NCBI GenBank assembly: GCA_937996765.1
Contig: CALKUG010000006.1
Location: forward strand, 1 to 42,193
Direction: 5' to 3'
Length of the DNA: 42,193 nucleotides
Origin: an uncultured Ignavibacteria bacterium
GTDB taxonomy: Bacteria; Bacteroidota; Ignavibacteria; Ignavibacteriales; Ignavibacteriaceae
Every line of letters starts with the position of its first letter. Positions within the stretch are counted from its first letter, which is position 1. Positions 17,720 through 42,193 of the stretch are shown here, one piece after another. The notes under the pieces were generated by a model. The model was not told where the DNA came from, did not search any database, and saw only the letters and a program-made list of their open reading frames with translations. The position numbers and the translations under genes are program-made.

Positions 17720-18235
17720 TTACGCGTTAAAAAGTTCTTTTACGGTCATACTGCGCTTGTTAGCCATAGCTCTTGCATCTATAAGTGATGTAAGTGCTTC
17801 TAACGTAGCCTTAACCTGATTGTGAGGGTTACTTGAACCTAAAGATTTAGTAAGAACATCCTGAACGCCAGCCATTTCAAGTACTGCACGAACTCCGCCG
17901 CCGGCAATTAAACCGGTACCAGGAGAAGCAGGTTTTAATAAAACCTTGCCGGCACCAAACTTACCAATGATGGTATGAGGAATTGTATGCTTGTGCAAAC
18001 CAATTTTAACAAGATTCTTTTTAGCATCATCTATGCCTTTTTGAATCGCATCGGTAACTTCGTTTGCTTTACCAAGGCCTATTCCCACAACACCTGCACC
18101 GTTGCCTACAACAACAATTGCGTTGAAACCAAATCTTCTACCGCCTTTAACAACTTTTGCTACACGGTTGATGTGGACAACTTTTTCTTTTAAACCTTCA
18201 GGTTCGTTTACTCTTACTATTTTCCTATTTTTCAA
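17720..18235 (-). CDS. rpsE: 30S ribosomal protein S5
   Basis: [30 protein letters not shown] start with GGAG 5-6 nt upstream. There is no in-frame ATG before the upstream stop. Confidence 0.96.
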
Positions 18236-18272
18236 TGTTTCTCCAATGAAAAAAATATAATTTGTTTATTTG

Positions 18273-18343
18273 CTGCCCGAGGAAGATTCGAACTTCCACA
18301 TACGGCTCCAAAGGCCGCTGTCCTACCGTTAGACGATCGGGCA
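18273..18343 (-). tRNA. tRNA-Gln (anticodon UUG), CCA not encoded, embedded in the spc operon
   Basis: Hand-folded cloverleaf: acceptor UGCCCGA/UCGGGCA (U1-A72), D arm GUCU-AACGGUA-GGAC, anticodon arm GCGGC-CUUUGGA-GCCGU, 4-nt variable loop, T arm GGAAG-UUCGAAU-CUUCC, discriminator G. Confidence 0.88.
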
Positions 18344-18348
18344 ACTAA

Positions 18349-19967: not shown

Positions 19968-20612
19968 TTAATTACTTCCTTTTTTCCTAAACGGAAAACC
20001 AAATGCTGTTAGTAACTCAAATGCTTCGTTATCAGTTTTTGCACTGGTAACAAAAGTGATATCCATACCGTTTACACGGGTCACTTTATCAACATTTATT
20101 TCAGGAAATATAATTTGTTCTTTTACACCAAATGTATAGTTACCGCGGCCATCGAATGATTTATCCGAAAGACCCTTAAAGTCGCGCACGCGCGGCAATG
20201 AAACATTGATAATACGATCGAGAAATTCGTACATACGGTCTTTGCGAAGTGTAACCATTGCTCCTATTGCCATGCCTTCACGTAACTTAAAGTTAGAGAT
20301 TGCTTTTTTGGCTTTACGCAGCGATGCTTTTTGTCCGGTTATTGCTTCTAAATCGCGAACAGCTTCGTCTAATGCTTTTTGCTCGGTAACTGCGGCACCT
20401 ACACCCATGTTAACAACAATTTTCTCGAGTTTAGGAACCTGCATTACAGAAGAATAATTAAACTTCTTCATCAATACAGGAACAACATCCTTTTTGTAAA
20501 TCGCTAAAAGACGACTTGGAACTCTTTCATCGAGAGTCATGGTCTCTTTTACTGTTTCCGCTTTACTACCTGCTTTAGCAGATTTTTCTTTTCTTGTTAC
20601 TTTCTCAGCCAT
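19968..20612 (-). CDS. rplE: 50S ribosomal protein L5 (possible Lys-rich N-terminal extension; alternative start at Met25)
   Basis: [21 protein letters not shown] core. The ATG at 20612 gives a 23-nt gap to rplX. The internal ATG at about 20540 would give a conventional N-terminus. Confidence 0.93.
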
Positions 20613-42140: not shown

Positions 42141-42193
42141 CACGGCAGGAGGGACTCGAACCCCCAACCTGCGGTTTTGGAGACCGCTGCTCT
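42141..42193 (-). tRNA. tRNA-Trp (anticodon CCA), 5' part cut by the window edge
   Basis: Reverse complement gives anticodon arm GCGGT-CTCCAAA-ACCGC, T arm GGGGG-TTCGAGT-CCCTC, acceptor 3' strand CTGCCGT + G. This is the classical position upstream of secE-nusG. Confidence 0.85.

Follow-up and report, generated by a model that had tools for sequence, protein, structure and literature searches.

The tRNA gene and its operon

The window, by which we mean the whole stretch of 42,193 nucleotides that was analysed, carries a contiguous str-S10-spc-alpha cluster of ribosomal protein (r-protein) genes, and a tRNA-Gln(UUG) gene lies inside this cluster, between the genes for ribosomal proteins L18 and S5. 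The features are listed below in the order in which they are read on the operon strand, each with the evidence on which it was assigned.

30687 to 11589, minus strand: contiguous str-S10-spc-alpha cluster of 34 co-oriented open reading frames (ORF lists, NCBIfam matches and spacings)
18702 to 18349, minus strand: rplR, ribosomal protein L18, the upstream neighbour (NCBIfam TIGR00060, 121.5 bits)
18348 to 18344, minus strand: spacer from the rplR stop codon to tRNA position 1, 5 nt, with U at position -1 (sequence)
18343 to 18273, minus strand: tRNA-Gln(UUG), here called J-type, 71 nt to the discriminator G73 (ARAGORN and Rfam)
18272 to 18236, minus strand: spacer from the tRNA to rpsE, 37 nt, A/U-rich, holding C74 and the Shine-Dalgarno sequence GGAG (sequence)
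18235 to 17720, minus strand: rpsE, ribosomal protein S5, the downstream neighbour, with a TTG start (NCBIfam TIGR01021, 214.3 bits)

The extent of the cluster, from rpsL to rplQ, was taken from ORF size and order, the profile checks (NCBIfam) covering only the part from L6 to SecY, S8 and S14 included; the matches to L18 and S5 are at equivalog level, and the others are to L6, S8 and S14 upstream of L18, and to L30, L15 and SecY downstream of S5. In relatives, 28 of the cluster proteins were recovered in order. The rplR-rpsE junction measures 113 nt, the other 32 junctions ranging from -1 to 34 nt except for tuf-rpsJ at 78 nt, and it is the only one of the 33 that holds a tRNA. The Shine-Dalgarno sequence of rpsE is at 18241-18244, 5 nt ahead of the TTG start. 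This start codon (18233-18235) is TTG in 61 of the 85 genomes with a junction tRNA, and a motif resembling a Shine-Dalgarno sequence is found in 57 of 85 orthologous tRNA-rpsE spacers.

ARAGORN, which the initial annotation had proposed as a check, calls one complete tRNA in the 42-kb window, on the minus strand at 18272-18343, and assigns it to glutamine with the anticodon ttg. The Rfam tRNA family RF00005 gives a full-model match at 18273-18343 on the same strand, with 63.0 bits against a gathering score of 29 (E 1.7e-11). Together with the ORFs, these two results agree with the initial description of a 71-nt cloverleaf lying 5 nt past the rplR stop codon and 37 nt ahead of the rpsE TTG. The glutamine identity features that had been read from it, U1-A72, G73 and the anticodon UUG, are all present in the sequence, and the discriminator is followed by C-A-A, so that CCA is, as had been noted, not encoded. 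Since most tRNA genes of this genome are without an encoded CCA, its absence here is normal for the genome. Of 98 orthologues of the junction tRNA, 86 have G and 12 have A at position 73, and about 28 encode CCA.

Several observations made in passing concern the window or the same cluster in relatives. The 3' part of another tRNA gene, cut by the window end, lies at 42141-42193 on the minus strand (37.4 bits to positions 20-71 of the RF00005 model). In the place of rplE (L5), at 19968-20612 on the minus strand, the ORF as listed has 214 residues; L5 proteins usually have roughly 180, and the true start may be further downstream than listed. Four loci from families f7 and f18 (L336, L337, L356 and L357) have about 1.4 kb of extra DNA between rpmD and rplO, compared with an L30-L15 gap of 12 nt in the window. 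In genome G142 (family f9) the cluster appears to be broken after L30, as a 15.6-kb stretch (L340) yielded none of L15, SecY, IF-1, S13, S11, S4, RpoA and L17 beyond rpmD.

Two types of tRNA-Gln(UUG) gene and their history

The rplR-rpsE junction was surveyed in other genomes with L18 and S5 as tblastn anchors, followed by ARAGORN. A tRNA is present there in all 67 surveyed genomes of the order to which the source genome belongs (four families), and also in nine further families of the class (f5, f7, f11, f13, f16, f18, f25, f26 and f27). All 98 copies are co-oriented with the operon, and the median spacers are 8 nt upstream and 40 nt downstream. The tRNA was not found at this junction in 14 other families of the class (1-3 genomes each), in any of 30 genomes of the neighbouring (sister) class of the phylum, or in about 70 genomes of other Bacteroidota lineages and other phyla. 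A pattern screen of 401 genomes of the phylum, combining a T-arm with an S5 motif, gave 49 matches, all in families known as carriers; it demands the exact coding motif AKVVKGG and a gap of 95-155 nt, and its sensitivity outside the class is uncalibrated. The survey of relatives suggested in the initial annotation thus gives an old placement. Far from being confined to one genome, the junction tRNA is fixed in a large, old clade of Ignavibacteria, but it is not phylum-wide. We found no published description of a tRNA at the rplR-rpsE junction in the literature on Ignavibacterium, on spc-operon tRNAs and on S10-spc insertions; the I. album genome paper merely counts 45 tRNAs.

Where do those members of the class without a junction tRNA keep their tRNA-Gln(UUG) gene? 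In all ten such genomes for which the gene was identified, it precedes prs-rplY by 40-460 nt and shares its strand. The same tRNA-Gln(UUG)-prs linkage occurs in metagenome-assembled genomes (MAGs) of Rhodothermales and Balneolales, and the prs gene of the source genome (contig C385) has no tRNA upstream. The prs-linked gene, which we call P-type, has 73 nt and shares 80.8% full-length identity with E. coli tRNA-Gln. The J-type is 72 nt long, with an acceptor stem and D-arm unlike those of the P-type and a 4-nt variable loop, and its nearest non-glutamine matches are tRNA-Glu. When models of both types were run against 150 genomes of the class, the P-type was found in 84, the J-type in 54, and both together in none; the P-type is absent from all 121 genomes of the order. 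Family by family, the two types complement each other perfectly. Of the 54 J-type genes only that of genome G246 (family f6) does not adjoin rpsE; it occupies a third site (L375:1518-1589), flanked by genes for a flavodoxin-domain protein and a PfkB kinase, and differs by 2 nt from a tRNA of a Rhodothermales MAG; f6 otherwise carries the P-type.

Three candidate explanations for the two types were rejected. The simple relocation of one gene is inconsistent with the junction and prs-linked genes within the class being different sequence types. The tRNA-Gln(CUG) gene is not the source of the J-type, as the CUG genes make up a third sequence family. Nor does the J-type go with GluRS/GatCAB and the P-type with GlnRS: GlnRS scores above cut-off in junction families (f1, f3, f4, f13 and f16) and in prs-linked families (f8, f12 and f14), and is missing from both sorts as well (junction f7 and f11; prs-linked f6, f9, f21 and f22). 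As a separate observation, GlnRS (TIGR00440) is above cut-off in 76 of 151 genomes of the class and is patchy within f17, f25, f5, f10 and f7, which points to the direct glutaminylation route having been gained or lost repeatedly in the class.

A tree of 28 cluster proteins (4285 columns, 58 genomes, rooted on two Bacteroidia genomes) places all junction-bearing families inside one clade (SH-aLRT 97), which also holds the P-type families f12, f14, f15, f17 and f22. The distribution of the junction tRNA on this tree needs at least five changes, of which well-supported branches force at least four. Constraining the junction-bearing genomes to group together costs 528 log-likelihood units (AU p 1.4e-6), this group having been named post hoc, after the tree was seen. 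A single gain without losses is rejected on both counts, the AU test being read with the same post hoc qualification.

The simplest account, and the one that fits best, is a single old gain followed by reciprocal loss. The J-type gene would have been inserted between rplR and rpsE in an ancestor of the clade that still carried the prs-linked P-type, and one or other tRNA-Gln(UUG) gene would then have been lost in each descendant lineage. Alternatively, the rplR-tRNA-rpsE segment may have spread laterally and repeatedly by homologous recombination, or the gene may have been inserted independently several times. The scattered position of the junction-bearing genomes, with the changes and the AU result just given, speaks for such a history; no sampled genome has both types, leaving the stage of coexistence unobserved, and G246, outside the clade, carries a J-type gene at a third site. 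We nevertheless consider repeated transfer or insertion unlikely. The acceptor-stem variants of the junction tRNA track the subclades of the species tree, with U3-A70 in f5, f11, f13 and f25 and C3-G70 in the order, f2 and f16, which argues for vertical descent. A tree of the flanking proteins L18 and S5, although too weak to resolve the history, fails to group the tRNA-bearing lineages. Finally, given the short backbone branches of the clade (0.02-0.04), the two genes would have had to coexist only briefly for the reciprocal losses to occur.

Transcription and processing

No promoter- or terminator-like site was found beside the tRNA on the minus strand in scans with sigma-70 and Bacteroidetes-type consensus sequences, which may not be those used by Ignavibacteria; the initial statement that neither is apparent holds in this sense. 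Promoter-like matches in the region number 16, compared with 29.1 expected from shuffled sequence. The Bacteroidetes-type -7 motif TAnnTTTG occurs 46 times in the window (49.7 expected) and nowhere near the tRNA. Across 65 genomes of the order, this motif is absent from the 70 nt upstream of every junction tRNA, and no position within 90 nt upstream exceeds 0.8 bit of conservation. The upstream spacer, at 5 nt here and a median of 8 nt in relatives, is itself too short to hold a promoter.

Signs of processing are seen at the ends of the tRNA gene. Bacterial RNase P is favoured both by U at position -1 and by C74. Of the 98 junction tRNAs, 78 have U at -1, against a T background of 35%, and 97 have C74. 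The genome encodes a type-A RNase P RNA (248.5 bits) and an enzyme of the CCA-adding family. No canonical RNase Z was found in the 98%-complete MAG, in which the only match to RNase Z, a weak one of metallo-beta-lactamase fold (C392:3466-4098), scores 28.9 bits against a cut-off of 293.

We infer from these features that the tRNA is co-transcribed with the operon and excised by RNase P. Presumably lacking a promoter of its own, it would be transcribed within the r-protein polycistron. Its 5' end, 5 nt past the rplR stop codon, would be generated by RNase P, and its 3' end by trimming and the addition of CCA by the CCA-adding enzyme. The genes from rpsE onwards would then be translated from the downstream fragment by way of the rpsE Shine-Dalgarno sequence, the retention of GGAG 5 nt ahead of the TTG making independent initiation after cleavage possible. 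A bolder version of the proposal is less likely than not: that excision is obligatory and leaves halves of different stabilities, one ending with rplR and the other led by rpsE, which would give the spc operon of this clade an internal control point based on processing, and that the ancestor for a short time carried both tRNA types as interchangeable genes, which were later sorted reciprocally among the descendant families.

Could the tRNA instead head a transcription unit of its own? A promoter towards the 3' end of rplR (for some families, one in the spacer) would then drive tRNA-Gln and the genes from rpsE onwards, dividing the cluster into two operons. tRNAs often lead mixed operons, as tRNA-Gln-prs-rplY does in the sister lineages, and rplR itself contains, at 18630-18602, a sigma-70-like sequence matching at 9 of 12 positions. 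Moreover, the tRNA of families f7 and f18 has long spacers (50-113 nt) with TAnnTTTG-like motifs on one side or the other, and a local promoter may exist in some such lineages. As a general explanation this arrangement seems to us quite improbable, given that no motif stands at a fixed distance upstream in the 65 genomes, TAnnTTTG being found in none of them, and that promoter-like matches fall below the shuffled expectation. There is also no terminator-like site after rplR, so that transcription would read through from upstream in any case.

Function and comparison with known systems

The 98%-complete assembly contains 35 tRNA genes, exactly one of them Gln(UUG) and one Gln(CUG); the count of other tRNA-Gln genes called for in the initial annotation thus yields no second Gln(UUG). 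A covariance model (R1) built from 37 orthologues of the junction tRNA was searched against eight complete genomes of the same order, and in all eight the junction copy is the single top match, at 97-102 bits, the next matches reaching at most 66 bits and being tRNA-Glu, Arg, Asn or Gln(CUG). In the 37 orthologues 99.9% of stem cells are paired and 10 of 21 pairs show compensatory double changes, a combination reached by none of 500 shuffles; three of the four stems contain such compensatory changes, and neither UUG nor U1-A72 varies. The genome encodes GlnRS (720 bits), and glutamine codons in the cluster's own genes are CAA in 100 cases and CAG in 71. On this comparative evidence the junction gene is evidently a real, selected and working tRNA-Gln(UUG), predicted to be the genome's only reader of the CAA codon and to be essential. 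That it is a pseudogene or tRNA-like element which regulates or structures the operon mRNA, as its odd position inside an mRNA operon and its lack of an encoded CCA might hint, is very improbable for a full-length gene with a high Rfam score, compensatory changes and an invariant anticodon, which is the sole tRNA-Gln(UUG) gene here and in eight complete relatives and which shares its unencoded CCA with most tRNA genes of the genome.

Since this sole copy lies on the operon strand, with no CCA and no recognisable promoter or terminator of its own, the supply of tRNA-Gln is plausibly tied to r-protein transcription. This coupling had been proposed in the initial annotation; it is plausible, but it is not new in principle, because the sister lineages keep their gene upstream of prs-rplY, in which rplY encodes the r-protein L25. 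Our overall reading, to which we give a probability of about 0.8, is that the locus holds a single functional tRNA-Gln(UUG) gene, ancestrally inherited, which has replaced the P-type and is transcribed within the r-protein polycistron and processed by RNase P.

Few bacterial gene strings are as conserved as the one that contains the rplR-rpsE junction, and no tRNA occurs there in the sampled genomes from outside the Ignavibacteria. The long fixation of an essential single-copy tRNA at this point shows that the operon tolerates an internal, predicted RNase P substrate. Cultured Ignavibacterium or Melioribacter would offer a natural system in which to relate tRNA excision to the stoichiometry of r-protein mRNAs and to their stability. 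Because the J-type and the P-type exclude each other, they provide a clean synteny marker for Ignavibacteria systematics, and the pair gives an example of one isoacceptor gene replacing another. New in the present analysis are the distinction of two mutually exclusive types, the finding that the alternative gene is linked to prs, the tree of 28 proteins and the negative GlnRS correlation.

How does this arrangement compare with known associations of tRNA and protein genes? In E. coli secG-leuU the two genes are co-transcribed, RNase P separates the tRNA, and the upstream mRNA decays within 30 s (Mohanty & Kushner 2008, PMC2241853). As in that system, the junction tRNA directly follows a protein gene on the same strand, with co-transcription and processing here deduced from sequence, and by analogy RNase P cleavage could shorten the life of the rplN-rplR half. 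Unlike leuU, which ends its operon and is followed by a terminator, the junction tRNA lies within its gene cluster, where at least 12 essential genes follow it and no terminator-like site was found. A second comparison, closer in the isoacceptor, is the tRNA-Gln-prs-rplY-pth block, which likewise has its tRNA co-oriented with an operon containing an r-protein gene; it differs in locus and, within the class, in the type of tRNA (73 nt compared with 72 nt).

The tRNAs of tufB-type operons and of rpmG-tRNA-Trp-secE are co-transcribed with protein genes. Like these tRNAs, the junction tRNA is embedded in the conserved supercluster of translation genes; unlike them, it does not sit at an operon border upstream of the coding genes, and none has been described inside spc between rplR and rpsE. 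Both the tufB-type operons (thrU-tyrU-glyT-thrT-tufB) and rpmG-tRNA-Trp-secE lie near this same gene supercluster (PMC8046335).

The junction tRNA resembles the tRNA punctuation of mitochondrial transcripts in that cleavage signalled by a tRNA lying between two coding regions would separate the mRNAs of a polycistron. Whereas mitochondrial mRNAs are leaderless or nearly so, rpsE retains 37 nt of leader, including a Shine-Dalgarno sequence (GGAG) of its own, and the tRNA and coding region do not abut in the mitochondrial manner, an arrangement reportedly described by Ojala, Montoya and Attardi in 1981. With the tRNA on the operon strand in every one of the 98 copies and with short spacers on either side (medians 8 and 40 nt), we conclude that the locus is probably an ordinary case of the mixed mRNA-tRNA operon, a known kind, in a placement that is old and apparently undescribed.
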